Below, in pieces: positions 10,453 through 59,846 of a stretch of DNA of 64,000 bases. The notes beneath the pieces are model-generated. The model did not search any database. It saw nothing but the letters and a program-made list of their open reading frames with translations, and was not told where the DNA came from. This stretch comes from Patescibacteria group bacterium (GTDB lineage Bacteria; Patescibacteriota; Minisyncoccia; Phycocordibacterales; Phycocordibacteraceae): the NCBI GenBank assembly GCA_038064695.1, contig JBBTSO010000004.1:114165-178164 (forward strand), in the 5' to 3' direction. The translations under genes and the position numbers were made by a program. Each line of letters begins with the position of its first letter. Position 1 is the stretch's first letter.

Positions 10453-10453
10453 T

Positions 10454-10888
10454 ATGCAACGAGGATTCTCATTATTTGAAGTTTTAATTGTTATCGGCAT
10501 ACTTGGTGTTGTAGCACTTTTCACCGTGGGTATTGATACGCGCTCCATTTCACGAAGCACTGCTTCCGCTGAAAGCACGGTGCTGTTACAAATGCTCATT
10601 CACGCACGCAGTCGGGCTATGAATAACGAGTATCAAATGCCTCACGGTGTGTACGTTGATGCAAACAATTTTGTACTATTTCGTGGTAATTCATATGACC
10701 CGTTGGCAGCAGGAAATGAGCCCACCCCTCGCTCAACACAGGTTTCAATTTCTATTCCACCCGCCGTTCCTTTTGAGGTCGTTTTTACCCAGCTTTCAGG
10801 CACTACGTCGGCTCAGACGGTAAAGCTTGCATCGGGGGTTGATTCGGTAGATATTGATATTAAAGAGACAGGCGCCATTGCTTGGTAA
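10454..10888 (+). CDS. Prepilin-type N-terminal cleavage/methylation domain protein (pseudopilin)
   Basis: MQRGFSLFEVLIVIGILGVVALF gives a class III signal G|FSLFE with Glu at +5. Start moved to the ATG at 10454, 1 nt after the pilC stop. The ORF-track start at 10388 overlaps pilC. Confidence 0.7.
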   Translation: MQRGFSLFEVLIVIGILGVVALFTVGIDTRSISRSTASAESTVLLQMLIHARSRAMNNEYQMPHGVYVDANNFVLFRGNSYDPLAAGNEPTPRSTQVSISIPPAVPFEVVFTQLSGTTSAQTVKLASGVDSVDIDIKETGAIAW

Positions 10889-10891
10889 CGT

Positions 10892-12430
10892 ATGAAAAAA
10901 CACCCTATCCGCGGCTTCAGTATCGTAGAAATTCTCCTCGCGCTCGCTATCGTGTCGGTAGCCATTACGGGTGCCACGGTACTGGCTTTTGGAAGCCAAG
11001 ACGCGGTGCGCGACGCGGGACTTTCGCAAGAAGCGCTCTATAAGGTGGAGCAGGCACTTGAAGAAAAATTTGCTGCTTTGAAATTTGATTGGAACCAGCT
11101 CGCCGCGAGTGCTATTGTTGCCGACAGCATTTACGACAAGCAGGTTATTGTTACCGACATTTCAGAGTGCGTGAAGCAGGTGGAAAGCCGCGCGGACTGG
11201 AGTGTGCCCCAGCGTTCACAAGCGTCGTCACTCATCACCCTTTTCTCTTCTACCTCAACCATCGCCGCGTTAGGGGGTAACTGCAATACCACTCCTACTT
11301 CGAATGATTGGGATTTTCCCAGTTCATACGGCTTCGCTGACTTTGAATCATCGAGTGGTATTCACGGTATGGACATTGATGTAACCTATCGAGGATCTCA
11401 ACGTATTGGATTTCTTGCGGGATCAATTAGTGATGACAACAAAGAAGATTTTGTTATTCTCGATCTTTCGGTCGCCAATACCCCCGCAGTTATTTCTGGT
11501 TCAGAACTAAACCTAGGAGAGTTTATTGAGGCGGGGGGTGGCGCAAACGGGCGAGTAAATGCATTAGTTGCTGCAGACAACTATGTGTATGCACTTTCAC
11601 ACACAAAGAAGAATTCACCTTCAGAAATGATTTTGACGGTTATTGATACTTCGATACTCACTGTTCCGACCGTGGTCGCTACATCAACTTTACCGGGCAA
11701 TGCCAGTGCATATGTCGATGAAGGCGCAATAGCTTATTATGACGGATATGTATACGTTGGAACATGGGATACTGCTGGTCCAGAGTTCCATGTTTTTGAC
11801 GTTTCGCTCCCTACGAATCCGATTGAAGTTGAGTCAGTTGAACTGACTCACTCAATCAAGGAACTCGTGGTGCGCAACAATTATGTATACGCTGCCACTA
11901 CTGCGGAAAACGCTGAATTAATGGTGTTTGATGTATCAAATCCTCTCAGTGTTCCAGACCCAATTTCAGCTGGTACTGTTTACGACGTAAAAAGTACTGA
12001 TGGAACGACCGCGAGTGGTCGTGACGGTACTTCCGTGTACGCTTCTGGCAACAGGGTATATCTAGGGCGCGTTGGCTCAGGGATTAATGAAAGTGATGAA
12101 CATGAATTCTTTATTCTTGACGTTTCAAACCCCGTAAGTATTTCCCTCCTCGGTTCGATGGAACTCGACTTGAAGACTACTGAAGAAGTGGTTGGTTTGA
12201 ACATTGTCGGACCTCTTGCGTTTATTGTTTCAACTGACACAAATGTGGGTTTCCAGGTATGGAATATTACTGATCCAGACAATATAGTGTCACCGTCATC
12301 GTGTAACAATTTATTTAATTATCCCGAAAAGCCAACAGCATTAGACTTTGTAGATAACTTCGGGTTTGTTTCAAATGATGCAAACAAGGCGCTAAGAGTA
12401 ATTTATGATGATCCATCCTGCACGCTATAA
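10892..12430 (+). CDS. Large (512 aa) prepilin-like protein carrying an LVIVD-repeat beta-propeller domain; candidate pilus tip adhesin / minor pilin
   Basis: N-terminus MKKHPIRGFSIVEILLALAIV (G|FSIVE). Five repeats of the LVIVD type: FVILDLSVANTP, FHVFDVSLPTNP, LMVFDVSNPLSVP, FFILDVSNPVSIS, FQVWNITDPDN, interleaved with NYVYA-type strands. Confidence 0.7.
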   Translation: MKKHPIRGFSIVEILLALAIVSVAITGATVLAFGSQDAVRDAGLSQEALYKVEQALEEKFAALKFDWNQLAASAIVADSIYDKQVIVTDISECVKQVESRADWSVPQRSQASSLITLFSSTSTIAALGGNCNTTPTSNDWDFPSSYGFADFESSSGIHGMDIDVTYRGSQRIGFLAGSISDDNKEDFVILDLSVANTPAVISGSELNLGEFIEAGGGANGRVNALVAADNYVYALSHTKKNSPSEMILTVIDTSILTVPTVVATSTLPGNASAYVDEGAIAYYDGYVYVGTWDTAGPEFHVFDVSLPTNPIEVESVELTHSIKELVVRNNYVYAATTAENAELMVFDVSNPLSVPDPISAGTVYDVKSTDGTTASGRDGTSVYASGNRVYLGRVGSGINESDEHEFFILDVSNPVSISLLGSMELDLKTTEEVVGLNIVGPLAFIVSTDTNVGFQVWNITDPDNIVSPSSCNNLFNYPEKPTALDFVDNFGFVSNDANKALRVIYDDPSCTL

Positions 12431-12884
12431 CCCTACTAGGCGAGGCGTTACGCTGTTCGAGACGCTCATCTACATTTTTATTTTCTCACTCTTGATGACG
12501 GGGGCGCTCGCCACGTCGTTTTGGACGGCGGAAACAAGTGCGCGCACCGCGCGTTTAGCGCTGATTGAGTCTGAAGCAGATTTTGTGTTGCGTAAAATTG
12601 ACTGGGCAGCAACGGGCTCCACTATCACAGAACCAGCGCCAGACGACACTGGGGATGTTTTAACTTTCGAGCGAGATGGTGAAGAATATTCTTTTATGCT
12701 CACCGGCAATACCTTGATGTTTCTTTTGAATGGTTTTGAAGCACCACTCACCACTAACAATGTGTCGGTGAGTTCTTTTTCCGCAACGCACGTGGCGGAA
12801 GCCGGGGTTGTACCCGCCGCCGCTTCAACCACAATTATTATGAACGGAAAAACGTACGGACCAAAAATTCACTATGTACGCTAA
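12405..12884 (+). CDS. Prepilin-type pseudopilin (minor pilin)
   Basis: RRGVTLFETLIYIFIFSLLMTG gives G|VTLFE with Glu at +5, with a hydrophobic helix downstream. Confidence 0.6.
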   Translation: MMIHPARYNPTRRGVTLFETLIYIFIFSLLMTGALATSFWTAETSARTARLALIESEADFVLRKIDWAATGSTITEPAPDDTGDVLTFERDGEEYSFMLTGNTLMFLLNGFEAPLTTNNVSVSSFSATHVAEAGVVPAAASTTIIMNGKTYGPKIHYVR

Positions 12885-13344
12885 CCCCCTTAACAAAAAA
12901 ATTATCATATATGGTAATTTTTTTCATATAGGGAAAAGTGAAAGGGGATACATCGCACTTGTGTCTGTACTCATTATTTCGTTGGTGCTTTTAACACTTG
13001 CGGTGTCGGTTAGTTTGACTGGGTTTTATGCACGTTCAAATATTTTGGGGAGCGAAATTAAAGAGCAGAGCATGGCGCTTGCAGAAAGTTGCGTCAGTAA
13101 AGCAGTGGCCGATGTCGCGATAGGGAACCCTACGACGGGCGTGGTTTCGTTTAGCGAAAATCCCTACACGGGAGATGCGTACGAGTGCACCATTCTTTCC
13201 ATTACATCTGACTCACCAAACACAGGAGAAACCACCATAGAAACTCAAGGAATTTTCTACAATTCGTACACCAACCTCGTCGTAACTATTGACAGTAATA
13301 ACCAAAATGTGTTGAAATGGCGAGAGGTTCCAACGCTCCCGTAA
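12874..13344 (+). CDS. PilX/GspK-like pilus-associated protein (hydrophobic N-terminal segment without the +5 Glu); start uncertain
   Basis: ERGYIALVSVLIISLVLLTLAV resembles PilX/GspK N-termini. The N-terminal region carries the 27-bp repeat also found inside tsaD. Confidence 0.4.
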   Translation: MYANPLNKKIIIYGNFFHIGKSERGYIALVSVLIISLVLLTLAVSVSLTGFYARSNILGSEIKEQSMALAESCVSKAVADVAIGNPTTGVVSFSENPYTGDAYECTILSITSDSPNTGETTIETQGIFYNSYTNLVVTIDSNNQNVLKWREVPTLP

Positions 13345-13444
13345 CTATTGATTTTGAGTGCGTTTTGTGGTAGTTTTTAAGCAGGGTACTTCCAAAAATA
13401 CCCTTTAATTAGAACTTATTTTTGGAGATTAGTCTCTTAAAAAA

Positions 13445-13900
13445 ATGAATAAAACTCTTAAATCAGCACGTGGTTTCACATTGATTGAAATCCTCGTCGT
13501 GATTGGTATTATTGCAATCCTCGCCGCAGTGGTGTTGATTGCTATTAACCCCGCTCGCCAGTTCTCACAGGCAAATAACAGTCAGCGTACATCAAACGTT
13601 AACGCTATTCTTAACGCTGTTGGTCAAAAACTTGCGGATGGCAAAGGTGCCTTCAATACAGGCGGTTGTCCAGCTCTTCCAACAACTCTATCAGAAATCA
13701 TTGTTGGTGGTACTGTATCAGGTAACCAAGTTGACCTAGCTTGTTTGACCCCAACCTACCTACCCTCATTCCCATTTGATCCGGCAACAGGAAACACTGC
13801 TTCAACAACAGGATACTTCATCATTGTCGACGGAAACAGTCGAGTAACGGTGAGTGCTCCTGATGCTGAGCTAAGTCAGACCATCTCAGTCACTCGTTAG
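13445..13900 (+). CDS. pilA: Type IV major pilin (PilA-like)
   Basis: MNKTLKSARGFTLIEILVVIGIIAILAAVVLIAINPA: canonical G|FTLIE class III signal, 151 aa, with its own leader and terminator. Confidence 0.8.
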   Translation: MNKTLKSARGFTLIEILVVIGIIAILAAVVLIAINPARQFSQANNSQRTSNVNAILNAVGQKLADGKGAFNTGGCPALPTTLSEIIVGGTVSGNQVDLACLTPTYLPSFPFDPATGNTASTTGYFIIVDGNSRVTVSAPDAELSQTISVTR

Positions 13901-41962: not shown

Positions 41963-44440
41963 ATGCCTCGTAAAAAAGTCGTTTCTGCCTCCACTAGTGG
42001 TGACACCCCCGATACTCCAACGCCTCACACAGGCGTTATTGATCGCTCTATCGTTGAAGAAATGCGCGAGAGTTATTTGGACTACGCGATGAGCGTCATT
42101 ACCAGCCGTGCGCTTCCCGACGTGCGTGACGGGTTAAAGCCAGTGCACCGACGCATCCTTTTTGCCATGCATCGCATGGGGTTGACCTCAAACTCTAAAC
42201 CAAGAAAAAGCGCCTCGGTTGTTGGAGACGTGCTCGCAAAATTTCACCCCCACGGCGATTCATCAGTGTATGAGGCGATGGTGAAAATGGCACAGAGTTT
42301 CACTATGCGGTATCCCTTGGTCATTGGTCAGGGAAACTTTGGTTCTATTGATGGCGATGCCGCCGCCGCGTACCGTTACACTGAGGCAAAAATGGCAGCG
42401 CTCGCCAGCGAATTAGTGCGCGACTTAGAAAAAGAGACGGTGGATTGGCGTCCTAACTACGACGGACGAGAAAAAGAACCAACCGTGCTTCCAGCCGCCG
42501 TGCCAAACCTACTTCTAAACGGAACACTTGGTATCGCTGTGGGTATGGCAACGAACATTCCGCCACATAACTTGGGTGAACTGGTAAGCGCAACGGTACA
42601 TTTAATAGACAATCCCAAAGCATCTACCGAAGATTTGCTTGAGTTCGTGAAAGGGCCCGACTTTCCTGTGGGCGGCATTGCGTTTAATCAGAAAGACATT
42701 GCGCACGCCTACGCAACGGGTAGGGGTCCTGTTATTGTTCGTGGCGATGCTGAAATTACTGAAGATAAAAAAGGCAACGCGCAAATTATCATTACCTCCA
42801 TTCCGTACCGCGTAAACAAAGCAGATTTGATTGTAAAAATTGCCGATTTAGTGCGCGAGAAAAAACTGGACGGCATTCGTGACCTTCGCGATGAATCAAC
42901 AAAAGACATTCGCGTGGTGGTTGACCTTAAAAACAACGCGCAACCACAGGCAGTTTTGAATTACCTGTATAAACACACACAGCTTGAAGAGGCGTTCCAC
43001 TACAACATGGTGATGCTGGTTGATGGTGTTCCGCAAACACTTTCATTAGGCGCAGTTCTGTTTCATTTTATTGAACATCGCAAAGAGGTAGTAAAACGCC
43101 GCACGGAGTTTGACTTAGGAAAAGCAAAAGACCGTGAGCACATTCTCCTCGGACTCACCAAGGCGTTGGATCACATCGATGAAATTATTGCTCTTATAAA
43201 AAAAGCAAAAGACGTTCCAACCGCGCATGCGGAGTTGATGAAGCGGTTCAAGTTTTCTGAACGTCAGGCGAGCGCCATTCTTGAAATGAAGTTGTCGCGC
43301 CTCGCGGGGTTGGAGCGCAAGAAAATTGAAGACGAACTCAAAGAAATCCAAACGCTCATTAAAGAGCTGGAGAGCATTTTGGGAAGCGAAAAGAAAATGC
43401 TCGCGGTGGTGAAGTCAGAATTGATTGCAACGGGAGAAAAGTACAGCGATGAACGCCGTACCAAGATAGTGAAAGGTGGAGTAAAAAATATGTCGGCGGA
43501 GGATTTGGTTCCCGACGAGGCGGCGATGCTCACGTTGACGAATGCCGGCTACGTAAAACGTACCAACCCCGCCGAGTATAAAAAACAAAACCGAGGCGGC
43601 GTCGGTGTCATTGACCTTTCAACCAAAGATGAAGATTTCGTGACGCGTTTCTTGGAAGGGTCAACGCACGACGCTATCCTTTTCTTCTCGGATCGTGGAA
43701 AAGTGTACCGCACGCGTATGTATGAAATTCCTGAAGGGCGGCGCGCCACAAAAGGAAAGAGCATTATGAACGTGCTCCCACTTTCCTCCGAGGAACAGGT
43801 GACGAGTGTTGTTTCAATACCAAAGTCAGGGGGCGCCGAGTCGTTTATGCTCGTCACTGAAAAAGGAGTAGTGAAAAAAGTGGCTGCAGACCAATTTGAA
43901 GACGTGAGAAAGAGCGGCATCATTGCCATTTCACTTTCACCTGACGACCGCCTCATTGCGGCGCTCCCTGTTTCAGCAAAACAATCAGTTTCGCTGGTGA
44001 CTCAAAAAGGACAGTCTATTCACTTTAGAGAGTCTGACGTTCGTACCATGGGAAGAACCGCCGCGGGTGTGTCTGGAATGAAACTTGCTAAAGGAGACGC
44101 TATTGTCGGAGCGGACGTCGTTAAAGACATTAAAAAGGTACACCTCTTAGTAGTGACTGACCGCGGGTACGGTAAACGAACGCCGATGGACGAGTATAAA
44201 ATTCAGAAGCGAGCGGGGAGCGGAATAAAGACAGCGAATGTTACTGAAAAAACGGGGCGTGTCATTGCAGCACTCGTTGTTACGGAAGAGGAAATGGGTG
44301 AGATTATTGTCGCAAGCAAGAAGGGGCAAGTGATTCGCACCGAACTAAATCAGGTACCAATTCTTGGGCGTGCCACCCAAGGCGTGCGTGTGATGAAACT
44401 CCGCGACGGCGACGCTATTGCGGCCTTCACAGCGTTTTAG
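41963..44440 (+). CDS. gyrA: DNA gyrase subunit A
   Basis: AMSVITSRALPDVRDGLKPVHRRILFAM with active-site Tyr region, and a C-terminal beta-pinwheel. Confidence 0.95.
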   Translation: MPRKKVVSASTSGDTPDTPTPHTGVIDRSIVEEMRESYLDYAMSVITSRALPDVRDGLKPVHRRILFAMHRMGLTSNSKPRKSASVVGDVLAKFHPHGDSSVYEAMVKMAQSFTMRYPLVIGQGNFGSIDGDAAAAYRYTEAKMAALASELVRDLEKETVDWRPNYDGREKEPTVLPAAVPNLLLNGTLGIAVGMATNIPPHNLGELVSATVHLIDNPKASTEDLLEFVKGPDFPVGGIAFNQKDIAHAYATGRGPVIVRGDAEITEDKKGNAQIIITSIPYRVNKADLIVKIADLVREKKLDGIRDLRDESTKDIRVVVDLKNNAQPQAVLNYLYKHTQLEEAFHYNMVMLVDGVPQTLSLGAVLFHFIEHRKEVVKRRTEFDLGKAKDREHILLGLTKALDHIDEIIALIKKAKDVPTAHAELMKRFKFSERQASAILEMKLSRLAGLERKKIEDELKEIQTLIKELESILGSEKKMLAVVKSELIATGEKYSDERRTKIVKGGVKNMSAEDLVPDEAAMLTLTNAGYVKRTNPAEYKKQNRGGVGVIDLSTKDEDFVTRFLEGSTHDAILFFSDRGKVYRTRMYEIPEGRRATKGKSIMNVLPLSSEEQVTSVVSIPKSGGAESFMLVTEKGVVKKVAADQFEDVRKSGIIAISLSPDDRLIAALPVSAKQSVSLVTQKGQSIHFRESDVRTMGRTAAGVSGMKLAKGDAIVGADVVKDIKKVHLLVVTDRGYGKRTPMDEYKIQKRAGSGIKTANVTEKTGRVIAALVVTEEEMGEIIVASKKGQVIRTELNQVPILGRATQGVRVMKLRDGDAIAAFTAF

Positions 44441-44479
44441 TGAAAATATTGACTTTTTCAAAAAAACATATATTATTTT

Positions 44480-44887
44480 TTGATGATTGATAGTAGAGCT
44501 GAAGCGTTTTCGTCGTCTCCCACTCTGCCAACGTATGCCCTGGCGGGTTTTTTTGCGACTGTTGCTGCTGGGCTGGTCGCTGTGACAATGAGTGGCGAGC
44601 AAACCTTTGAAGGATTAGTTAATTTTTACAAAACAGTAGTGAAAGATGATTTGATTGAGCACTGTCCTGATGGATATGAAAAAGAATGGTTGCAAATGGC
44701 GTTTGAAAAAATTCTCCATTGGCAAAAAGATACTGAAGAAGCTTTAAAAACATGCCCTGACGAAAGTCATGAACTAGGTCAAAGTGCTTTAAATGATATT
44801 TTGGCGAGAAGAATTGCAATGAAAGTTACGCTGGTCTCTCTTTTTATTGGCGGTGCTGCAGCAATTGGTTTACGAAGAAGGAAGTAA
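44480..44887 (+). CDS. Hypothetical protein with N- and C-terminal hydrophobic segments
   Basis: ORF only. AT-richer than its neighbours. Confidence 0.4.
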   Translation: MMIDSRAEAFSSSPTLPTYALAGFFATVAAGLVAVTMSGEQTFEGLVNFYKTVVKDDLIEHCPDGYEKEWLQMAFEKILHWQKDTEEALKTCPDESHELGQSALNDILARRIAMKVTLVSLFIGGAAAIGLRRRK

Positions 44888-44957
44888 TAAAATAAAATTT
44901 ATTTCACATACACACAGGACTGTATCAACGTGCAGTATTCTCGTTTACAATGGAGGT

Positions 44958-45479
44958 ATGTTTTTGAAACCATCAGAAGTGGTAAAACACCTTGCGCTCC
45001 GAAGTGGACTCAAGGTAGGAGACTTTGGCGCGGGGGGAGGAGAGTACGCTCCCTTGGTACTCGCCGAGTTGCAGAACGAAGGCGCGTTGTACGCGTTTGA
45101 CGTGGTGCCTGAAATGGTAGAACGACTTCATCGAAAAAAAGTGAGCGCGCAGGCAGATAATTTCTTTACTATCCATGCTGATTTAAACACCGCGCTTCCC
45201 CTTAAAGGTGAGCTTCTTGATCGCGCGCTAGTTATTAACACGCTCTACGCGCTTCGTGAACGAGCACGTTTTTTAAGTGAACTTAACCGCGTTCTTGCGC
45301 GCGGAGGGCAAACACTCTTTGTTGACTGGACATCGTCGTTTAAAAATATGGGTCCTCGTGAAGAAGAAGTAGTCTCTCCAGGAGAAGCGGTACGTCTGTT
45401 TCAATCGCACGGCTTTTCGGTAGGTACTATGCTTCCGGCAGGCAGTCACCACTACGCGTTTGTGGCGAGGAAACAGTGA
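44958..45479 (+). CDS. Class I SAM-dependent methyltransferase (small)
   Basis: Motif I VGDFGAGGGEY. Start set at the ATG at 44958 to avoid the overlap of the ORF-track start. Confidence 0.6.
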   Translation: MFLKPSEVVKHLALRSGLKVGDFGAGGGEYAPLVLAELQNEGALYAFDVVPEMVERLHRKKVSAQADNFFTIHADLNTALPLKGELLDRALVINTLYALRERARFLSELNRVLARGGQTLFVDWTSSFKNMGPREEEVVSPGEAVRLFQSHGFSVGTMLPAGSHHYAFVARKQ

Positions 45480-45535
45480 AAAGTCTTGTTGATTGTTGCC
45501 GAATGCTCCTTTCTCGATGCTGTATGCTGTAATAT

Positions 45536-46819
45536 ATGAAACCCTTTCATATTGCGGTTCTCGTTTTTTTTGGCGCGCTCGCGATGTTCGCGGTATTTAT
45601 TTTTGCCAGCTTTTCTTCGCAAAACCGTGACGCGGTTGGTGAGGTAGTTATATGGGGGACGCTCCCTGAAAACACGGTTGATGAGGTGCTGTCGGCGTTG
45701 TTTCTTGTTTCAGACGGTTACGAGGAAGTATCGTATCGGCAACTCGCGGAATCAACGTTTGTTGCAACACTTGTTGAAGCAATCGCTGCTGACCGTGGCC
45801 CTGACCTCATCCTGCTTCCTCATGACGCGGTGTTGAGTGAACGTGACAAAGTTATAACCATCCCGTACCGTTCCATTTCACGCCGGTCGTTCCAAGACAC
45901 CTTTGTTGAAGCGGGGGAAGCGTTCCTCACTGACGAAGGGATGTTAGGACTACCATTTTATATTGACCCATTCGTGCTTTATTGGAACCGCACGCTCTTC
46001 TCTAATGCGGGAATTGCCCGTGTCCCTCGCTTCTGGGATGAGTTTGTTGATATTGCGCCTGTACTTTCAAAGCACACTCAAGGAGGCACACTAACGCAAA
46101 GCGCGGTGAGTTTAGGCGAGTGGGGGAACATCACTCACGCAAAAGAAGTTTTTACCTCACTCATTATTGGGCTCGGCAATCCCATTACTCAGTTTGCTGA
46201 CGACGGAGAACTGCGGGTGGTGTTAAACGGAGATCAAAACGCCGCAGTGTCGCCGGCTGAGTCAGCGCTCCGTTTCTACACCGACTTTGCTGATCCGGTA
46301 AAAACAACGTACTCATGGAATCGTTCCCTCTCACCTTCACGAGATGCTTTTACGGCGGGTTTTTTGGCGACGTACTTTGGTAAGGCAAGCGAGCTACTCC
46401 CTATTCGCGCACAAAATCCTAATCTCAATTTTGATGTTGCCGCGTATCCCCGCGTGCGTGACGGAGTGCTCGCGGTGCCCGCGGACGTGTACGCGCTCGC
46501 CATTCCGCGTGGCTCAAAAAACCAGAGCGGAGCATTGAAAGTGGCAGTCGCATTCTCAGGAATTGATGTTCAGAAATCTCTCATGGCTCAAACAGGACTC
46601 CCGTCAGTGCGGAGAGACGTTTTGAGCGCGTCTCCAGAAAACCCTTTTGAGTCCATATTCCGCGATGCTGCTTTAAATGCGTACGTGTGGTTTGACCCGG
46701 ATCCGGAAGGTACTGAAAAGATTTTTGAACGAATGGTTGAAGAAACATCATCAGGGAAATTGCGTATTCCTGAGGCGGTGAGTCAAGCACAGGAGGAGCT
46801 TTCTACTCTTGCGCGGTAG
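45536..46819 (+). CDS. Membrane-anchored extracellular solute-binding-like protein
   Basis: N-terminal TM anchor, then about 400 aa of periplasmic-binding-protein-like composition (VIWGTLPEN...). No cognate permease is adjacent, so the assignment is weak. Confidence 0.4.
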   Translation: MKPFHIAVLVFFGALAMFAVFIFASFSSQNRDAVGEVVIWGTLPENTVDEVLSALFLVSDGYEEVSYRQLAESTFVATLVEAIAADRGPDLILLPHDAVLSERDKVITIPYRSISRRSFQDTFVEAGEAFLTDEGMLGLPFYIDPFVLYWNRTLFSNAGIARVPRFWDEFVDIAPVLSKHTQGGTLTQSAVSLGEWGNITHAKEVFTSLIIGLGNPITQFADDGELRVVLNGDQNAAVSPAESALRFYTDFADPVKTTYSWNRSLSPSRDAFTAGFLATYFGKASELLPIRAQNPNLNFDVAAYPRVRDGVLAVPADVYALAIPRGSKNQSGALKVAVAFSGIDVQKSLMAQTGLPSVRRDVLSASPENPFESIFRDAALNAYVWFDPDPEGTEKIFERMVEETSSGKLRIPEAVSQAQEELSTLAR

Positions 46820-46836
46820 GGTACAATAGAAAAGGA

Positions 46837-46871
46837 AGTAATGAGATATCAGTAACGAGTAATCAGTAAAA
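46837..46871. repeat. Heptad leader repeat AGTAATG-AGATATC-AGTAACG-AGTAATC-AGTAAAA upstream of the first pilin-like gene
   Basis: 7-bp periodicity read directly from the sequence. Confidence 0.5.
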
Positions 46872-46875
46872 ATAA

Positions 46876-47253
46876 ATGAAAAAGTTTTTTAATTATATTT
46901 CGTATCTTGCTGTTTTTGCGCTCGTCTCCATTCCGCGCGTGTCGTACGCTGCAACGTGTGGTGAGGGGAGTGGGGGGCTTCAGAATCCACTCCAGTTCTG
47001 TACATTGACCGACTTCCTCTCCGCACTTCTAGGCGCGGTCATTCAGATCGCGTTTCCTATTATTGTGCTCTTTATTGTGTTCATTGGTTTTAGATTTGTG
47101 CAGGAATCAGCAGCGGGCAACGCGGAAAAAATGAAAGAGCTCCGTGGTTTGTTGTTTTGGGCTATTGTGGGCGCGCTCCTTATTCTTGGTGCGCAGGTCC
47201 TCTCCTACGCCATTGACGCTACGGTGCAGCAGCTAGGAAGTGGAATTCGTTAA
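46876..47253 (+). CDS. Small pilin-like protein 1 (signal peptide + two TM helices; VirB2/TrbC-like topology)
   Basis: Signal peptide ..SYA|ATCGEG, then LSALLGAVIQIAFPIIVLFIVFIGF .. LLFWAIVGALLILGAQVLS. Paralogous to the next three genes and to the N-terminus of 58870. Confidence 0.55.
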   Translation: MKKFFNYISYLAVFALVSIPRVSYAATCGEGSGGLQNPLQFCTLTDFLSALLGAVIQIAFPIIVLFIVFIGFRFVQESAAGNAEKMKELRGLLFWAIVGALLILGAQVLSYAIDATVQQLGSGIR

Positions 47254-47268
47254 TATATAACGGGAGGT

Positions 47269-47700
47269 ATGACACTGACTGACATCATCAATATCATTAC
47301 CAATCTCGCGCAGCTTGTTGTTCCTATTTTAGTGGCACTTGCGCTCCTATTTTTCCTGTGGGGTCTCGCTACTTTTATTTTGAATGCAGGCGAAACTGAT
47401 AAGCAAAAAGTGGGGAAGGATCGTATGCTCTGGGGGCTCGTCGCGCTTTTCTTCATTATTTCCATTGGTGGGTTGTTGGTTATTCTTCAAGGAACCTTTT
47501 TCCCTGACCAGGGGCTCCATAACACCCCTTCAGGGTTCACCGCTAACCAATTTCCAACTTCAGGTGGTGCAGGCGGGGGAGGCGGAGAGGGTAGTTTGCT
47601 TGACGGTGGCTCAGCAGATAGACCATTTCGATTTGGTGGGTTTGCCTGCTTTTTTGGGAACTGCGAAGGAGAAACTGAAGGATTCCGACGTATACGGTAG
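47269..47700 (+). CDS. Small pilin-like protein 2 with Gly-rich C-terminal tail
   Basis: Shared family motif PILVALALLFFLWGLATFILNAGETDKQKVGKDRMLWGLVALFFIISIGG. C-terminal GGAGGGGGEGS and CFFGNC. Confidence 0.55.
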   Translation: MTLTDIINIITNLAQLVVPILVALALLFFLWGLATFILNAGETDKQKVGKDRMLWGLVALFFIISIGGLLVILQGTFFPDQGLHNTPSGFTANQFPTSGGAGGGGGEGSLLDGGSADRPFRFGGFACFFGNCEGETEGFRRIR

Positions 47701-47802
47701 TTTTTTAGTATCCACACCCAACTTTTTGGTGTCTTGTGGGTGTGTGTAGAGTGATATACTGGAAGGGTAGTATTAATAAATTATTGAAACTCTCGTACAA
47801 TT

Positions 47803-48108
47803 ATGGACGGTATTGAAAACATTTTAAGAATTATCGGCGAATTAATTAACCTTGCTACGCCGATTGTTGTCGCGCTCGCGCTTCTCTACTTCTTTTGGGG
47901 TCTTGCCAGTTACATTTTGAAGGCAGGTGAAGAGGATGGAAGAAAGAAGGCAAAAGACACCATGATCTGGGGTATTCTTGCTCTTTTCGTGATGGTTTCG
48001 GTATGGGGCATTATCAACGTCGTTCGTGATACGTTTGAAATTGATAATAACAACCAGATTGACATCCCTATTGTTGATATAGATCAGAGTGGCGGTTCTG
48101 CACGTTAG
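47803..48108 (+). CDS. Small pilin-like protein 3
   Basis: PIVVALALLYFFWGLASYILKAGEEDGRKKAKDTMIWGILALFVMVSVWG. Confidence 0.55.
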   Translation: MDGIENILRIIGELINLATPIVVALALLYFFWGLASYILKAGEEDGRKKAKDTMIWGILALFVMVSVWGIINVVRDTFEIDNNNQIDIPIVDIDQSGGSAR

Positions 48109-48346
48109 TGTGAAAGAAGAACGCGAACCACATACTTCGCCCGTAAAACCCGCGGACGCGCTTGGAACTCTCTCCAATCGCACGCGGGTTTCGCGTTACT
48201 CGGGATTGTTAGTTGCCGTGGTCGGTTTTTTCGTCATCGCCTTTTTTATTGGCTTGCTCTTTCGGTTTGTGTTTGACGAGTCAAACACACCCGACATTCC
48301 CACTGTTGATTTAAAGCAGGACTCGTTTTAAGGGTATACTTTTAGT

Positions 48347-48592
48347 ATGAATAATTTTGATATTTTTGTCGGGAACCTCGTTGAGTTCCTTATTCAACCA
48401 CTCATCAACTTACTTTTCGCGCTCGCGTTAGTGTACTTTTTATGGGGGCTTACTATGTTTATTTTAAACGCGGGTGACCCTGAAGGTCAGAAAAAAGGAA
48501 AGACCGCGCTCATTTGGGGGATTATCGGGCTTTTCATTATGACTTCGGTCTTAGGCATTCTTGCCGTTGCTCAAAATACGTTTGGGATTTAA
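48347..48592 (+). CDS. Small pilin-like protein 4
   Basis: LINLLFALALVYFLWGLTMFILNAGDPEGQKKGKTALIWGIIGLFIMTSVLG. Confidence 0.55.
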   Translation: MNNFDIFVGNLVEFLIQPLINLLFALALVYFLWGLTMFILNAGDPEGQKKGKTALIWGIIGLFIMTSVLGILAVAQNTFGI

Positions 48593-48638
48593 ACCAGTTC
48601 GTGCAGAGACAATTTTTTTCTGGTATTGTAGGAAAACT

Positions 48639-48723
48639 GCTGGGATGGCGAAATTGGTAGACGCACTTGCCTTAGGAGCAAGCGGGGTGACCCATGGAGG
48701 TTCGAGTCCTCTTCCCAGCACCA
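48639..48723 (+). tRNA. tRNA-Leu (anticodon TAG), CCA encoded
   Basis: Hand fold: acceptor GCTGGGA/TCCCAGC, anticodon loop CTTAGGA, long variable arm, T-loop TTCGAGT, then ACCA. Confidence 0.85.
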
Positions 48724-48762
48724 GTTCAAAAATTAAGAATAATTTGTTACAGTGGGGAGCAT

Positions 48763-48835
48763 CCGCCCTTAGCTCAGTTGGTAGAGCAACTCCCTCTTAA
48801 GGAGATGGTCCTTGGTTCAAATCCAAGAGGGCGGA
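48763..48835 (+). tRNA. tRNA-Lys (anticodon CTT)
   Basis: Hand fold: acceptor CCGCCCT/AGGGCGG (C1-G72), D-arm GCTCAGTTGGTAGAGC, anticodon loop CTCTTAA, T-loop TTCAAAT. Confidence 0.7.
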
Positions 48836-48952
48836 CAGCGAATCGAAACAAAACCCCTACGGGCTTTTTTCGTTTACGTTGTCCGGGTCGAAAAGGTGGT
48901 ACGTTTCGAGTGCAACTCTTTACTTTGACACTTTTTCTATACTAACCTGCAC

Positions 48953-49255
48953 ATGGCAGAAATCGCAGCGGCAGAGTCATCATTAATCCCCGGTTGGGTG
49001 CTACCATCGGGAATCGCGGTTGCCCTCCTTATTGGAATTTTCAAAATGACTGTTGAAGGTGATATCGATATTGATTCAGATAGTAAAAATGAAGACACAG
49101 AAGAAGAAAGTAAAGAATGTGAAAATTGCGGTGGCAGTAGGTTTGTGACCTGCGGTAGGTGTGAAGGTGATGGAGATGATCCTGAATTTTTTAATGAAGA
49201 GTGTTGGTGGTGTGATGGTAGTGGAAAAGTACCTTGTTGGGAATGTAATTCATAA
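48953..49255 (+). CDS. Membrane-anchored mini-protein with a DnaJ-type cysteine-rich zinc-finger (4 x CxxCxGxG) and an acidic linker
   Basis: TM helix WVLPSGIAVALLIGIF, linker DIDIDSDSKNEDTEEESKE, then CENCGGSRFVTCGRCEGDG and CWWCDGSGKVPCWEC. Confidence 0.55.
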   Translation: MAEIAAAESSLIPGWVLPSGIAVALLIGIFKMTVEGDIDIDSDSKNEDTEEESKECENCGGSRFVTCGRCEGDGDDPEFFNEECWWCDGSGKVPCWECNS

Positions 49256-49326
49256 CAACTCCAACATTACCCCACGGGGCGGGCATTCTTTGTTGTTCTC
49301 TTATATCGTAGTATCCTTTATAAATC

Positions 49327-49398
49327 GGCCACGTCGTCAAGTGGTAAGACAAGGGACTGCAAATCCCTTATACGCGAGTTCGATTCTCGCCGTGGCCT
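49327..49398 (+). tRNA. tRNA-Cys (anticodon GCA)
   Basis: Hand fold: acceptor GGCCACG/CGTGGCC, anticodon loop CTGCAAA, T-loop TTCGATT, discriminator U. Confidence 0.85.
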
Positions 49399-49496
49399 CA
49401 AGTATGGTAAAAATAAGAAATCGCTCGGGTAAGCAGAGCTTGCCCGAGCGTCGCTCGGAGACAGTGCATATATAATATTCACTGTCCTCCTCACTC

Positions 49497-49580
49497 GCCC
49501 GGGTGGCGAAATTGGTAGACGCGCAAGACTTAAAATTTTGTAACCGAAAGGTTATGCGGGTTCGATTCCCGCCCCGGGCA
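49497..49580 (+). tRNA. tRNA-Leu (anticodon TAA)
   Basis: Hand fold: acceptor GCCCGGG/CCCGGGC, anticodon loop CTTAAAA, long variable arm, T-loop TTCGATT. Confidence 0.85.
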
Positions 49581-49674
49581 CTTTTTAAATAATCTAGAAT
49601 TCTAGATTATTTTGGCAAGGGAATCAGATAGAGTGAGTGCGCGCAACGACCCGGCTCTGAGTCGGAGCGAAGAG

Positions 49675-49693
49675 GATTCCCGCCCCGGGCACT
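49675..49693 (+). repeat. 19-bp direct duplicate of the tRNA-Leu(TAA) 3' end (GATTCCCGCCCCGGGCACT), 92 bp downstream of the tRNA; att-like scar
   Basis: Identical to 49564-49582. The intervening 92 bp contains the perfect 26-bp palindrome AAATAATCTAGAATTCTAGATTATTT (49587-49612). Confidence 0.6.
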
Positions 49694-50006
49694 ACTTTTT
49701 CTCTGTTGTTTCAACCGGCTCTATGGTCCCCCCGACCACAGGGTCGGCAAGGAAGGTAACGTGGGGGAGTGCGCGTACACGGAGGCGTGATTTTAAGTAA
49801 TCGCTAAAGTTACTGCGTTGTCGGTTCAAAAAGTCAGTCGCCGCGTGCGTTTCTTTTTCTGGGAAAACACTCACAAAAATGTCGGCGCGCATACCCCTGC
49901 GATCCAATACCACCTTGGTCACCGTAATCATAGACCGACGGTTACTTTCTCGGTTTATAAATTCAGACGCTGCTTGCTGAAGTGCCTCAATAAGTCGTTC
50001 CCTCAT
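49692..50006 (-). CDS. rbfA: Ribosome-binding factor A
   Basis: SMITVTKVVLDRRGMRADIFVSV .. LRVRALPHVTFLAD aligned by eye to RbfA. Immediately downstream of infB, the classic infB-rbfA order. Confidence 0.7.
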   Translation of the reverse strand: MRERLIEALQQAASEFINRESNRRSMITVTKVVLDRRGMRADIFVSVFPEKETHAATDFLNRQRSNFSDYLKSRLRVRALPHVTFLADPVVGGTIEPVETTEKK

Positions 50007-51485
50007 TTACATACTTCGAATTTCTATTTGATCGCCACCAATAATGTCTGCCTTTGTTTCTATCTGCGCGCCAAATTCTTTTCCCTCTGAGAGTGAATCT
50101 ACATCTGCGCGTTGTGCCTGCAAGTTAGTTATTTTGCCGTTGGCCACTTCAATGCCGCGACGAATAATGGTGACGGTAGCGTTACGTTTTATAATTCCCA
50201 TTTCTACTTTACCTCCCACGACGTGTTTATTGCCTGTAGTTGAAAAATGTTTAAGAATTTTTGCGCGCCCTTCAATGGTTGCCACGGTGGGAGCGGGAGC
50301 ACGGGTTGCGACTTGTTTTTCCAACCACTCGGTGAGTTCGTAAATAATAGAACGAGTTTCAATGACGACGCCTTGTCGGTCGGCGAGGTCTTTGGCAGAC
50401 GCATCCACCTTCACATTGAAGCCAAGAATAATAGCGTCGGGGAAGCCAATTAAGAGCTTCACATCATTTTCTGAAACTGCGCCAACGGTTTTTTGAACCA
50501 CCACCAGCTGTGCGTTCTCACCGGAAATTTTCTTTAATTCAAATTCAAGCGCCTCAATAGAACCAAGAGTGTCGGCCTTGAGCACCAACCGAATTGGTTT
50601 TTTACTTTCATCGTATACCTCCTGTTCACGAAGTGGTGCTTCGCCGAGTTTTGCCATACTCTCGGCTTCTTTTTTCGTCGCAACGACGCGTAGCTCGCTT
50701 CCCACCCGTGGTTCTTTAGAAAAACCAGTAATACGTGCCGGTTTACCACACGCAAGCGCTTTTACCTTTTCTCCAAGTGCGTTTTCAACGATACGGAGCG
50801 GAGCCCACGCATCGTCAGCAACGGCGAATGATCCGACCTCTAAAGTTCCTTCACGCACAATAACCGTTGCAGAAACACCAGCGCGTGGGTCGCGAGAGGA
50901 CTCAATCACGATAGCGCGAGCACTGGCGGATGAATCGCAGGTTATTTCCTCTAGGTCAGCAACGAGGGCAATGAGGTCAAGAAGCTCTGACACACCCTCG
51001 CCTTTCTTTGAAGAGACACCCACCCATGGCACGGTGCCCCCAAGCCCTTCAAGGTAGATTCCTTCTTTCAATACGCTCTCTTTTGCGCGGTCAATGTTCG
51101 CGGTGTCTTTGTCTATTTTGGTGAAGGCGACAATATAGGGAATTCCTGCGGCAGTTATTGCATTCCACGCTTCTTTCGTTTGGGGTTTTACCCCGTCGTC
51201 CGCGGCAATAACTAAAATAGCAATGTCAGCTGCGGAGGCACCACGGCGGCGCATTTCCTGAAACGCCTCGTGTCCAGGGGTGTCTATGAAAGTAATGGGG
51301 CGCGTGACGCCCTCATTGGTTGTGTGTTCAATTTCATACGCCGAAATACGCTGGGTGATGCCACCCACTTCACGGTCGGCAACCTTACTTTTGCGGATGT
51401 AGTCCAAAAGGGAAGTCTTGCCGTGGTCAATGTGGCCGACGACCGCCACGACGGGCTGGGAGTGAGATTTACTAGGAGTTGTCAT
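50007..51485 (-). CDS. infB: Translation initiation factor IF-2 (short form: G domain + C-terminal domains)
   Basis: G1 VAVVGHIDHGKTSLLD, G3 DTPGHEAF, G4 NKID. Confidence 0.9.
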   Translation of the reverse strand: MTTPSKSHSQPVVAVVGHIDHGKTSLLDYIRKSKVADREVGGITQRISAYEIEHTTNEGVTRPITFIDTPGHEAFQEMRRRGASAADIAILVIAADDGVKPQTKEAWNAITAAGIPYIVAFTKIDKDTANIDRAKESVLKEGIYLEGLGGTVPWVGVSSKKGEGVSELLDLIALVADLEEITCDSSASARAIVIESSRDPRAGVSATVIVREGTLEVGSFAVADDAWAPLRIVENALGEKVKALACGKPARITGFSKEPRVGSELRVVATKKEAESMAKLGEAPLREQEVYDESKKPIRLVLKADTLGSIEALEFELKKISGENAQLVVVQKTVGAVSENDVKLLIGFPDAIILGFNVKVDASAKDLADRQGVVIETRSIIYELTEWLEKQVATRAPAPTVATIEGRAKILKHFSTTGNKHVVGGKVEMGIIKRNATVTIIRRGIEVANGKITNLQAQRADVDSLSEGKEFGAQIETKADIIGGDQIEIRSM

Positions 51486-58515: not shown

Positions 58516-58800
58516 ATGGGACTTGCTCATGCGTATGAGAGAAAGAGTTTTTTACCAGCATTTAATTCTCCTGCAGGTCTTTTACTGATTTTTGGTGGAG
58601 CGTACATTGCGCTCAGTGCAGTATTAATGGGGATAGCAGAGTTTACCGAAAACCAGTCAGCGTTAGAGGAGATGGGGTATCATCGTTGTGCTTGCGAAAA
58701 TGAATATCACGATTGCTACGTTATTTTGACACCAATTTACCCGTTTCCAACCTGCGCTACATGCACCTTTGGACAATGCTATTTAAAATACCACGCGTAG
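58516..58800 (+). CDS. Hypothetical small membrane protein with a Cys/His-rich tail
   Basis: TM helix LLLIFGGAYIALSAVLMGIA. C-terminal HRCACENEYHDC .. CATCTFGQC. Weakly supported. Confidence 0.25.
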   Translation: MGLAHAYERKSFLPAFNSPAGLLLIFGGAYIALSAVLMGIAEFTENQSALEEMGYHRCACENEYHDCYVILTPIYPFPTCATCTFGQCYLKYHA

Positions 58801-58869
58801 TCCTACCTACTTTTTCATCTTCCACTTTAAACACGGGAAGGGAGTATTTGACAGGGTATACTGGACACT

Positions 58870-59814
58870 ATGAAAAAGGCACTTATTTTCTTAGGGGTGT
58901 TTCTGTTCCTTTTAGCTCCTGGAGTTGTGTTTGCAGAATCATTTTTAGGTCCGATTGTTCCCGTTGAAATCCAGGAAGGGGGTCCGTATCTACAGGGGTG
59001 TGATTTAGTTAAACTTTTTGACAGTGCTCTAAAATTTGCTGTTGGTTTCGCCACTATGGTTGCGACGTTGATGTTTGCCTACGCAGGGTTTCTGTATGTG
59101 ACGGCTGCATCAAAGCCGGAAAATTTAAATCAAGCTAAAAGTGTTTTTGGTAACGTCTTTACGGGATTCATCATCATTCTCATCGCGTGGCTCGTTGTTG
59201 ATCTTATTATGTCGGTGTTCGTTGATGAGAAAAAAATAGGACCGTGGAATCAAATTTCCTGCGTTGAAAGACCAGCTCAGCCATACTACCCAGACTCTGG
59301 AACAATAGATTCAAGTTTGCCAGGAGATCAAACGCAGTGGACTTTAGAGGATCAACAGCGCGCGAAACTTGCTGCCGCGGGCGTTCAATGGAATAACTCT
59401 CCTTGTACTGGTGGTGCTACGACTGGTTGCACCAATCTCGCTAGAACAAGTTCGGATACTATTGACTACGTCATTGAAACTAAAAAACAGTGTGACAGTG
59501 CAACCGGAAGTTCTTGTCAGGTGGTAGTTTCCGGTGGGAGCGAGGGCGGACACGCTGGGGGGTCTAACCCCGGTTCACATGGCGCGGGCGACAAGGTAGA
59601 TTTGCGGGCAACGCCAGATTTAAATAGCTACGTTGATAAACAAATTACCGCAGGGACATTCACGAAAGTAGAAGATCCAAAATTTGGAGAGAGTCAGTAC
59701 ATTGATACGAAAACGGGATCCGTGTGGACCTATGAAAAAGGTGATTCTGGCGAATATGATCACTACGATATCTGCACTTCAAACTGTGCTGCCCCCGCGG
59801 CTCAAGGGAGTTGA
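58870..59814 (+). CDS. Pilin-like protein 5: N-terminal module homologous to the 46876-48592 family fused to a about 200-aa extracellular Cys/Gly-rich domain
   Basis: Signal peptide ..VFA|[27 protein letters not shown] .. [22 protein letters not shown] parallels LLGAVIQIAFPIIVLFIVFIGF .. LLFWAIVGALLILGAQVLS of 46876. Confidence 0.5.
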
Positions 59815-59846
59815 TTTTTGAACCTCTTTCAGGTAATATTGCTCAC

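Follow-up and report, generated by a model that had tools for sequence, protein, structure and literature searches.

VirB2-like pilin-family genes in a conserved chromosomal array, and a predicted pilin-peptidase fusion, in a groundwater member of the Patescibacteria

A 64,000-nucleotide stretch of contig JBBTSO010000004.1 (assembly GCA_038064695.1, positions 114,165 to 178,164 of the forward strand; hereafter "the window", whose numbering is used throughout unless another locus is named) comes from a Patescibacteria group bacterium and carries a tandem array of four genes, p1 to p4, for small two-helix membrane proteins, together with a fifth gene, p5, in which the same module is fused to a different C-terminal domain. 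The best overall explanation, which we consider likely, is that p1-p4 form a vertically inherited, VirB2-like array of the Pfam family PF18895 (T4SS_pilin) whose type IV secretion system (T4SS) is encoded elsewhere in the genome. The host is a groundwater member of the Patescibacteria, class Paceibacteria, related to Kaiserbacteria and UBA2163. Proteins identical to those of the window are encoded on a 220-kb contig of GCA_964357335.1 and on contigs from the Hainich aquifer (well H41, 0.1 µm filter); for the relatives, the annotation given is Paceibacteria, Kaiserbacteria or UBA2163. The array and its gene family are already-described biology; the fusion of a pilin module to hydrolase domains that are swapped between lineages, and the joint module of array and solute-binding protein, are modest new leads. 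In the shortest account, the pilin-peptidase fusion of p5 is possibly the sole part that looks new.

The array occupies 1.7 kb of one strand (plus), in the order p1 (46876-47253, 125 amino acids), p2 (47269-47700, 143 amino acids), p3 (47803-48108, 101 amino acids), a small non-pilin gene (48110-48331) and p4 (48347-48592, 81 amino acids); p5 (58870-59814, 314 amino acids) is located downstream on the same strand. All five proteins scored above the curated gathering threshold of PF18895 (26.6 bits), with 33.8, 33.5, 43.8, 39.0 and 30.7 bits for p1 to p5, respectively, and 77-96% of the profile covered. Their alignments to the 71-position profile (positions 4-71, 6-68, 5-71, 14-68 and 10-71; E 3e-7 to 3e-11) also lie within the limits used in a published survey, namely a match to more than 50% of the profile with an i-Evalue below 0.001 (PMC12102498). 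In pairwise comparisons, p2, p3 and p4 were 42-52% identical to each other (E 5e-20 to 2e-25); p1 was not significantly similar to any of the three and is tied to them only through the Pfam profile, its best pairwise match being p5 (24% identity, E 0.003). Two subtypes can thus be told apart: p1 and p5, which have a predicted signal peptide, and p2-p4, which are leaderless. A search of the six-frame translation of the window with a hidden Markov model built from p1-p5 revealed no further member. In-frame codon-usage scores were positive for p1-p5, while those of overlapping alternative open reading frames (ORFs) did not exceed 0.03; chance similarity of hydrophobic ORFs was rejected on the basis of the PF18895 scores, the pairwise E-values and codon usage. 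Type IV pilins were also ruled out, since the prepilin cleavage/methylation motif (TIGR02532) is absent from p1-p5; it is present in window ORF 10892-12430, which belongs to a separate type IV pilus cluster. We therefore assign p1-p4, as well as the N-terminal part of p5, to the small helix-loop-helix membrane proteins of the PF18895 family, and conclude that, judged by profile matches, p1-p5 almost certainly belong to the VirB2-like T4SS pilins.

An initial annotation, made from the letters of the window alone, had recognized the tandem array of four and the fifth homologous module at 58870. Both are real, with the ORFs where it had placed them and PF18895 matched in all five. Its choice of the conjugative/T4SS class of pilins over type IV pilins agrees with the PF18895 match and the missing prepilin motif, and the Pfam search confirmed T4SS_pilin and not an unrelated DUF family. 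The consensus core that it quoted fits p2-p4 and does not describe p1, the divergent subtype. Its proposal of a distinct, poorly described family has to be given up: Pfam and NCBI already label the family "pilin" (NCBI gives this very name to p5), and multi-paralogue arrays from Patescibacteria have been published (PMC12102498, PMC10633639, PMC12857230).

A hydropathy scan placed two transmembrane segments in the module of each of p1-p5, with a charged loop between them that is rich in Lys and Arg, as direct reading of the sequence also indicated. The p1 protein begins with a putative signal peptide (…VSYA|AT, read by eye) and contains a Cys-x13-Cys loop and two hydrophobic helices (residues 52-70 and 91-109). 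The p2 gene starts 15 nt after the p1 stop codon, with a GGGAGG Shine-Dalgarno sequence just upstream; its product has transmembrane segments at residues 16-34 and 54-72, followed by a Gly-rich C-terminal tail of ~70 amino acids that ends in a CxxxxxC motif. The array member nearest to the family consensus is p3, and p4 is essentially a bare two-helix module. The small gene between p3 and p4 codes for 73 amino acids from a GTG at 48110, 2 nt past the p3 stop codon, in agreement with the start in the related locus L005; the ORF is also listed from a GTG at 48089, in an 80-amino-acid form. Its product consists of a basic cytoplasmic N-terminus, one transmembrane helix (residues 40-58 of the 80-amino-acid form) and a short external tail, and no match was found when a family assignment was sought. 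Its codon-usage score is positive, and it is a real gene, conserved inside the array and missed in the initial annotation.

Related genomes were retrieved with translation initiation factor IF-2 as an anchor. In loci L005 and L006, the latter on the complete chromosome CP174359.1 (721 kb), the whole block of gyrA, methyltransferase, solute-binding protein, p1, p2, p3, small ORF and p4 is collinear, and the best match of every pilin is the gene at the same ordinal position. Identities to the L005 and L006 orthologues are 55% and 52% for p1, 62% and 57% for p2, 65% and 59% for p3, 53% and 61% for p4 and, by tblastn, 41% and 44% for the small ORF, compared with 59% and 58% for the solute-binding protein, 55% and 45% for the methyltransferase and 75% and 69% for IF-2. 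Orthologues of the small ORF were found in the same position in three further loci as well (L021, L024 and L025; 39-52% identity). In a distant relative, L010, with an IF-2 identity of 47%, six pilins occupy this site, and both subtypes are kept, with and without signal peptide. In L005, L006 and L010, the array immediately follows a homologue of the solute-binding protein, and a metagenome scan with a profile made from a 9-sequence p2-p4 alignment, which returned 80 loci, revealed such a homologue in the same position in 40 out of 40 loci that have at least 1.5 kb upstream of the array. Complete metagenomic arrays (n = 33) consist of 4-7 members each, and IF-2 is present in 16 out of 20 metagenomic loci with at least 9 kb downstream. 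Array and solute-binding protein thus lie inside a gyrA...IF-2...ClpB housekeeping block; in the window, GyrA, the methyltransferase and the solute-binding protein are encoded upstream, and RbfA, IF-2, ClpB, L33 and others downstream.

Since the orthologue identities of p1-p4 match those of the methyltransferase and the solute-binding protein, the pilins appear to diverge about as fast as neighboring non-informational genes. We conclude that the array is old, chromosomal and vertically inherited, and that its paralogues are individually conserved. Individual conservation favors non-redundant structural roles, and a heteromeric structure, over antigenic variation; most likely, the paralogues have non-redundant roles, for example as major and minor subunits or as parts of a heteropolymer, and interchangeable variants are unlikely.

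The solute-binding protein (45536-46819, plus strand, 427 amino acids) has an N-terminal membrane anchor and is an orphan of the sugar/oligosaccharide type. It matched the Pfam models SBP_bac_8 (3.4e-16) and SBP_bac_1 (1.1e-11), and its nearest solved relatives are distant oligosaccharide-binding proteins, e.g., 4r9f (2e-10). No ABC permease or ATPase gene adjoining it was identified in the window. Across the clade, the array is tied to this membrane-anchored binding protein rather than to virB4, an association not mentioned in published surveys, which are centered on virB4 neighborhoods (PMC12102498). On the other side of the array, several loci of more distant relatives (L010, 12908-14053; L028, 6162-7883; L057, L063, L066 and L089) encode an SPFH/Band-7-like protein or an ORF of 500-590 amino acids without a Pfam match; the window has no such gene after the array. 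In L005, a gap between tRNA genes downstream of the array (13219-13744) contains three repeat copies translating as ...GLRLGHVQKNSTQ....

The T4SS connection of the array is supported by what is known of the family. In a search of 3,035 Patescibacteria genomes with PF18895 and PF04956, VirB2-like genes were found in 1,948 VirB4-positive assemblies, adjoining virB4 in 1,135 of them, and 441 arrays of 2-11 genes were found in 383 assemblies, with a mean identity of 25% and a maximum of 54% (PMC12102498). A pilin array inside the T4SS cluster of Southlakia epibionticum is essential (PMC10633639; reviewed in PMC12857230); both the T4SS and the pilin array are essential in the one genetically tractable Patescibacteria species. 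The p1-p4 array falls under the published definition of an array, which is at least two pilin genes in tandem or parted by one non-pilin gene (Quinonero-Coronel 2025). It shares with the Patescibacteria arrays (the six pilins of S. epibionticum ML1 and the 441 surveyed arrays) the Pfam family, tandem divergent paralogues (here up to 52% identical), a non-pilin gene allowed inside, a single-membrane host and a context without relaxase. Unlike the published arrays, it stands outside a T4SS cluster, in a housekeeping block right after a solute-binding protein, in every related locus examined. Proximity to virB4 is not seen within the window; it is a non-obligatory trait (1,135 out of 1,948 assemblies).

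The likeness to other conjugative pilins is more distant. With VirB2, TrbC and TraA (PF04956; T-pilus and F-pilus), the proteins share a size of ~70-130 amino acids, two hydrophobic helices, a short basic loop, both ends predicted outside and, in p1 and p5, a predicted cleavable leader; they differ in having no PF04956 match and no sequence match to a solved pilin, in the leaderless p2-p4, in a host without outer membrane, in the lack of adjacent VirB3/VirB4 and in that polymerization has never been demonstrated for PF18895. The pilin-like conjugal transfer protein of Mycoplasma integrative and conjugative elements (ICEs; Mbov_0395/MMCAP2_0565, NCBIfam NF045849) is likewise an 80-amino-acid two-helix protein of a wall-less or single-membrane lineage with a T4SS of the Gram-positive type. 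The p3 protein aligned to positions 7-78 of the 80-position NF045849 model with a score below the cutoff (35.7 versus 40 bits). In contrast to the Mycoplasma gene, which is part of a mobile element, the array studied here is chromosomal and vertically inherited.

Several observations weigh against a T4SS pilus. As the initial annotation had noted for VirB4 and VirD4 near the array, no VirB4, VirD4 or VirB6 was found among the ORFs of the window; all six ORFs longer than 500 amino acids have other Pfam/NCBIfam assignments, and no other scanned ORF matched a T4SS component family. No T4SS core gene was present beside the array in ~45 related loci of at least 6 kb, in which large ORFs were checked, and in the contexts examined p5 was never beside T4SS genes, a placement as compatible with a housekeeping function as with one in a T4SS. 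None of p1-p5 matched PF04956 (TrbC/VirB2) at E ≤1, a search of Protein Data Bank (PDB) sequences with the pilin-module profile revealed no match to any solved conjugative pilin, and tblastn of p3 against 72,556 plasmids produced no match. The leader peptide typical of VirB2 is missing from p2-p4, and, since a pilus of PF18895 proteins has yet to be observed in any organism, the name "pilin" is itself inferred (PMC12857230, PMC10633639). Because no T4SS ATPase is encoded nearby, any assembly machinery must be encoded elsewhere. Assembly GCA_002773335.1, the genome of the syntenic relative L008, is listed as VirB4-positive, and in Paceibacteria virB4 is usually located near dnaA. Taking both sides together, we regard a T4SS connection of the array as probable, and a true extracellular filament as slightly short of an even chance.

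On this reading, p1-p5 would insert into the membrane with their short basic loop on the cytoplasmic side and both ends outside; p1 and p5 would do so via Sec and signal peptidase, and p2-p4 without a leader. A VirB4-powered T4SS of the Gram-positive type, encoded elsewhere, would extract the array proteins and polymerize them into a tube or stalk, similar to a pilus, that spans the cell wall, as proposed for epibiotic Saccharibacteria. The pilin module of p5 would tether a zinc peptidase of the LAS family outside the membrane, where it may, like VirB1, clear a passage for the apparatus through the cell's own wall or else take part in general wall remodeling. Whether a single-membrane bacterium builds a VirB2 pilus, and with what cargo, is a question to which the locus is relevant, not one that it answers.

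The p5 protein combines a signal peptide (residues 1-22, 58870-58935; …VVFA|ES, read from the sequence), a T4SS_pilin two-helix module (residues ~43-117, 58996-59220; helices 43-80 and 84-117 in a predicted model), a disordered linker and an extracytoplasmic LAS-type zinc-peptidase-like domain (residues 150-314, 59317-59811). A word-indexed search with the full-length protein returned 39 homologues, of which 24 were full length. All 24 are PF18895-positive; four of them matched PF04956, weakly (best E 0.0038). In the last 165 residues of p5, H237, G240 and D244 do not vary among the 24 homologues, and E225, H228 and H298 are at least 90% conserved. The putative zinc ligands are H237 (59578-59580), D244 (59599-59601) and H298 (59761-59763), the latter two being on beta-strands of the predicted model. 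An H-x6-D...H arrangement is the zinc-ligand spacing of LAS metallopeptidases such as VanX, MepA and sonic hedgehog, and the p5 domain has both the ligand pattern, H-x(3-6)-D plus a distal His, and, in the prediction, the LAS fold. Curated models and sequence searches did not pick up this relationship: one of the 24 family members matched an M15 model (Peptidase_M15_4, E 0.069), a PDB sequence search with the p5-family profile revealed no meaningful relative, and a word-indexed homologue search with the C-terminal domain alone returned nothing. Compared with LAS zinc metallopeptidases (the hedgehog N-domain and MEROPS families M15 and M74; VanX, VanY, MepA, Ply500, VldE), the domain escapes the Pfam M15 models and has extra N-terminal helices and several conserved cysteines. 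It is best read as a divergent LAS-type peptidoglycan peptidase, and the enzyme probably cuts peptide bonds of peptidoglycan. The initial annotation had taken this Cys/Gly-rich domain for a tip or adhesin variant; that assignment was rejected in view of the LAS-type fold with its conserved metal triad.

The p5 gene occupies the same core-genome slot, near rpmG, miaA and ClpB, in 8 out of 8 genomic contexts examined (ClpB ... X ... rpmG, miaA, AhpC, pyrF, parB, relA, topA, dprA, serS, where X is the slot). More distant LAS-type members (P0022 and P0039) are also beside rpmG or ClpB. In three other loci, the slot gene has the same signal peptide and pilin module followed by another C-terminal domain: an SLT domain in L013 (7154-8350) and two further types without assignment in L014 (10001-10924) and L016 (98-1207). 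Proteins of this slot that have another C-terminal domain on the p5-type N-terminal module are P0033, with an SLT lytic transglycosylase, and P0020 and P0035, with unassigned domains. Single-sequence PDB searches with the C-terminal domains of P0035 and P0020 revealed no relative; local hhalign aligned their HxxGxxxD region without statistical support, and we do not claim them as LAS-like. The swapping of C-terminal domains on a constant pilin module suggests selection for the module as a platform that carries wall-active enzymes. Immediately before p5 is a 94-amino-acid ORF (58516-58800, plus strand) with a single transmembrane helix and a tail rich in Cys and His. The gene calls for same-species contigs include it, but relatives lack it and its coding score is close to zero; it may be spurious.

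The arrangement of the array could also be explained without a secretion system. Array and solute-binding protein may constitute a T4SS-independent envelope module, the two-helix proteins being membrane oligomeric partners of the sugar-binding protein in a complex for sensing, uptake or host-glycan docking, and the name "T4SS_pilin" would then be misleading for this subfamily. That the binding-protein homologue is upstream in all 40 loci, even where GyrA identity has fallen to ~56-66% and that of the binding protein itself to 30-63%, speaks for such a module, as does the contiguity of the binding protein/array block in the face of several kb of variation on the downstream side; virB4 was adjacent to the array in no locus examined, the genes identified next to the binding protein include no ABC permease or ATPase, and no sequence similarity of the pilin modules to solved conjugative pilins was detected. 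However, the whole gyrA...ClpB region is syntenic in the clade, and the adjacency may be conserved gene order only; family-wide, PF18895 genes often adjoin virB4, and the array within a T4SS cluster is essential; moreover, no known transporter or sensor uses such subunits. We consider this explanation unlikely. Less probable still is that the paralogues are a cassette for antigenic or host-range variation, i.e., interchangeable, fast-diversifying major pilins, as proposed for the VirB2 paralogues of Bartonella and Anaplasma. The idea has been suggested for Patescibacteria pilin paralogues (PMC12102498), the initial annotation had raised antigenic/size variation as well, and low identity within the array (24-52%, that of p1 not significant) and an array size of 4 to 7 among related loci are in its favor. 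Yet each paralogue has a same-position orthologue that is 52-65% identical where IF-2 is 69-75%, the solute-binding protein 58-59% and the methyltransferase 45-55% identical, so that the pilins are not hypervariable, and both subtypes are retained even in the distant L010. The array itself was kept at the same site in L005, L006, L010 and the metagenomic loci. Variation is thus very unlikely, and a vertically inherited T4SS pilin array with separate roles for its members is preferred.

For p5, the choice is between a link to secretion and ordinary wall metabolism. It could be a housekeeping cell-wall peptidase, an LD-/DD-carboxypeptidase or endopeptidase, with an anchor that is merely pilin-like and no connection to a secretion system. 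Its slot is constant in the eight contexts (rpmG, miaA, ClpB) with T4SS genes never adjacent, and the LAS enzymes VanY, LdcB and MepA are ordinary wall-remodeling enzymes. Against this, in most full-length relatives the N-terminal module exceeds the PF18895 threshold, and it is better conserved than the enzyme domain. The C-terminal domains were swapped between lineages (LAS-like, SLT and two unassigned) while the pilin module was kept, which implies selection on the anchor itself. Finally, Gram-positive T4SS-associated hydrolases are likewise membrane-anchored. We hold the housekeeping role to be a serious possibility, short of probable. As for the known T4SS hydrolases, VirB1, TraG (pIP501), PrgK (pCF10) and CwlT (ICEBs1) resemble p5 in having an extracytoplasmic wall-hydrolase domain held at the membrane, and one same-slot relative of p5 has the SLT domain typical of VirB1; p5 differs in that its domain is LAS-type and not SLT, CHAP or NlpC/P60, in its pilin-module anchor, in its location beside rpmG and not in a T4SS operon, and in that its activity is predicted only. 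More tentatively, and with considerable doubt, the VirB2-like module may be a general platform in this Paceibacteria clade and not just a filament subunit: a structure spanning the envelope would be built or decorated by a conserved operon of "sugar-binding protein + 4-7 pilins" at a distance from virB4, and a separate, universally retained gene would carry, on the same pilin module, interchangeable wall-degrading domains (LAS peptidase, SLT transglycosylase, others). If so, pilin-hydrolase fusions would be the "missing VirB1" of the Patescibacteria T4SS or a pilus-borne enzyme that breaches the host wall in epibiosis; a pilin module with swappable wall-hydrolase-like domains in a fixed slot is a candidate for the VirB1 wall-opening activity that surveys reported missing. 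In the literature searchable here, none of the three observations, the conservation of individual paralogues, the link to the binding protein and the swappable fusions, has been reported.

Downstream of the array are tRNA-Leu(UAG) (48639-48723) and tRNA-Lys(CUU) (48763-48836), then a zinc-finger ORF (48953-49255, plus strand, 100 amino acids), tRNA-Cys (49327-49399) and tRNA-Leu(UAA) (49497-49581), the tRNAs being identified by both ARAGORN and Rfam. The tRNA genes follow the array and are not, as the initial annotation had it, interleaved with it; only the zinc-finger ORF lies between tRNAs. In its product, a single transmembrane helix is joined by an acidic linker to four CxxC pairs, which are 11, 17 and 11 residues apart, a spacing of the DnaJ cysteine-rich type. 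The initial annotation was probably right about the DnaJ cysteine-rich type and wrong about the number of exact CxxCxGxG motifs: there are two, not four, in addition to one CxxCxGxx and one terminal CxxC. The match to PF00684 reached 13.6 bits (cutoff 32.7), and all Pfam/NCBIfam DnaJ matches were sub-threshold. A word-indexed search returned the protein itself only; an exhaustive search of 1.84 billion representatives revealed 11 weak matches (E 1.5e-9 to 8e-4), in the Cys-rich part only, which include a genuine DnaJ and one protein with membrane anchor and zinc finger. The ORF resembles the PF00684 domain and small membrane-anchored DnaJ-like zinc-finger proteins in its CxxC spacing and in these weak matches, significant library-wide, and differs from DnaJ in lacking a J-domain, in scoring below the Pfam cutoff and in having no orthologues that could be found.

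The ORF is plausibly a real gene, with a positive codon-usage score. It was absent from the syntenic relatives L005-L010 and ends ~20 nt before the left breakpoint of an inversion: the tRNA-Cys/tRNA-Leu(UAA) segment (49275-49693) has, relative to IF-2, the opposite orientation to that in all five related genomes, and is bounded by inverted 15-nt copies (49275-49289 and 49673-49687); in addition, 19 nt of the tRNA-Leu 3' end are repeated exactly in direct orientation (49564-49582 = 49675-49693). A role of the zinc-finger protein as a partner of the pilins, e.g., in chaperoning the Cys-containing members at the membrane or in catalyzing their disulfide formation, would suit its same-strand position 360 nt past the array and the extracytoplasmic cysteines in p1, p2 and p5; plant proteins with a membrane anchor and a DnaJ-like zinc finger act in protein assembly. 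However, the protein has no homologue outside the species and is missing from syntenic relatives that keep the array, two tRNA genes part it from the array, and it abuts the lineage-specific inversion with its inverted copies of the tRNA 3' end. Such a partnership is highly improbable. The zinc-finger ORF is an orphan of this lineage that does not belong to the pilin system, with which the initial annotation had grouped it; no link to the pilins was seen.

A -10-like hexamer, TAnAnT, ends 3-9 nt upstream of the ATG of p3, p4, the zinc-finger ORF, p5 and rpmG (47790-47802, 48333-48346, 48938-48952, 58856-58869 and 59833-59846, respectively). None of these five genes has a Shine-Dalgarno sequence, p2 having GGGAGG instead, and the arrangement hints that leaders of several genes of this set may be very short or absent. 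In a promoter/terminator scan of 44400-50100, sites were no more common than in shuffled sequence.

Two other surface-related loci are present near the start of the window, both on the plus strand. The type IV pilus cluster mentioned above (8010-13900) codes for a PilB-like ATPase (8010-9230), PilC (9214-10452) and the 512-amino-acid protein with the prepilin motif (10892-12430), followed by three small ORFs, possibly pilins. A 1,203-amino-acid surface protein (2886-6497) contains repeated SpaA-type prealbumin-fold domains, DUF11 and a C-terminal peptidoglycan-binding domain; it is likely an adhesin of this epibiont-type bacterium.

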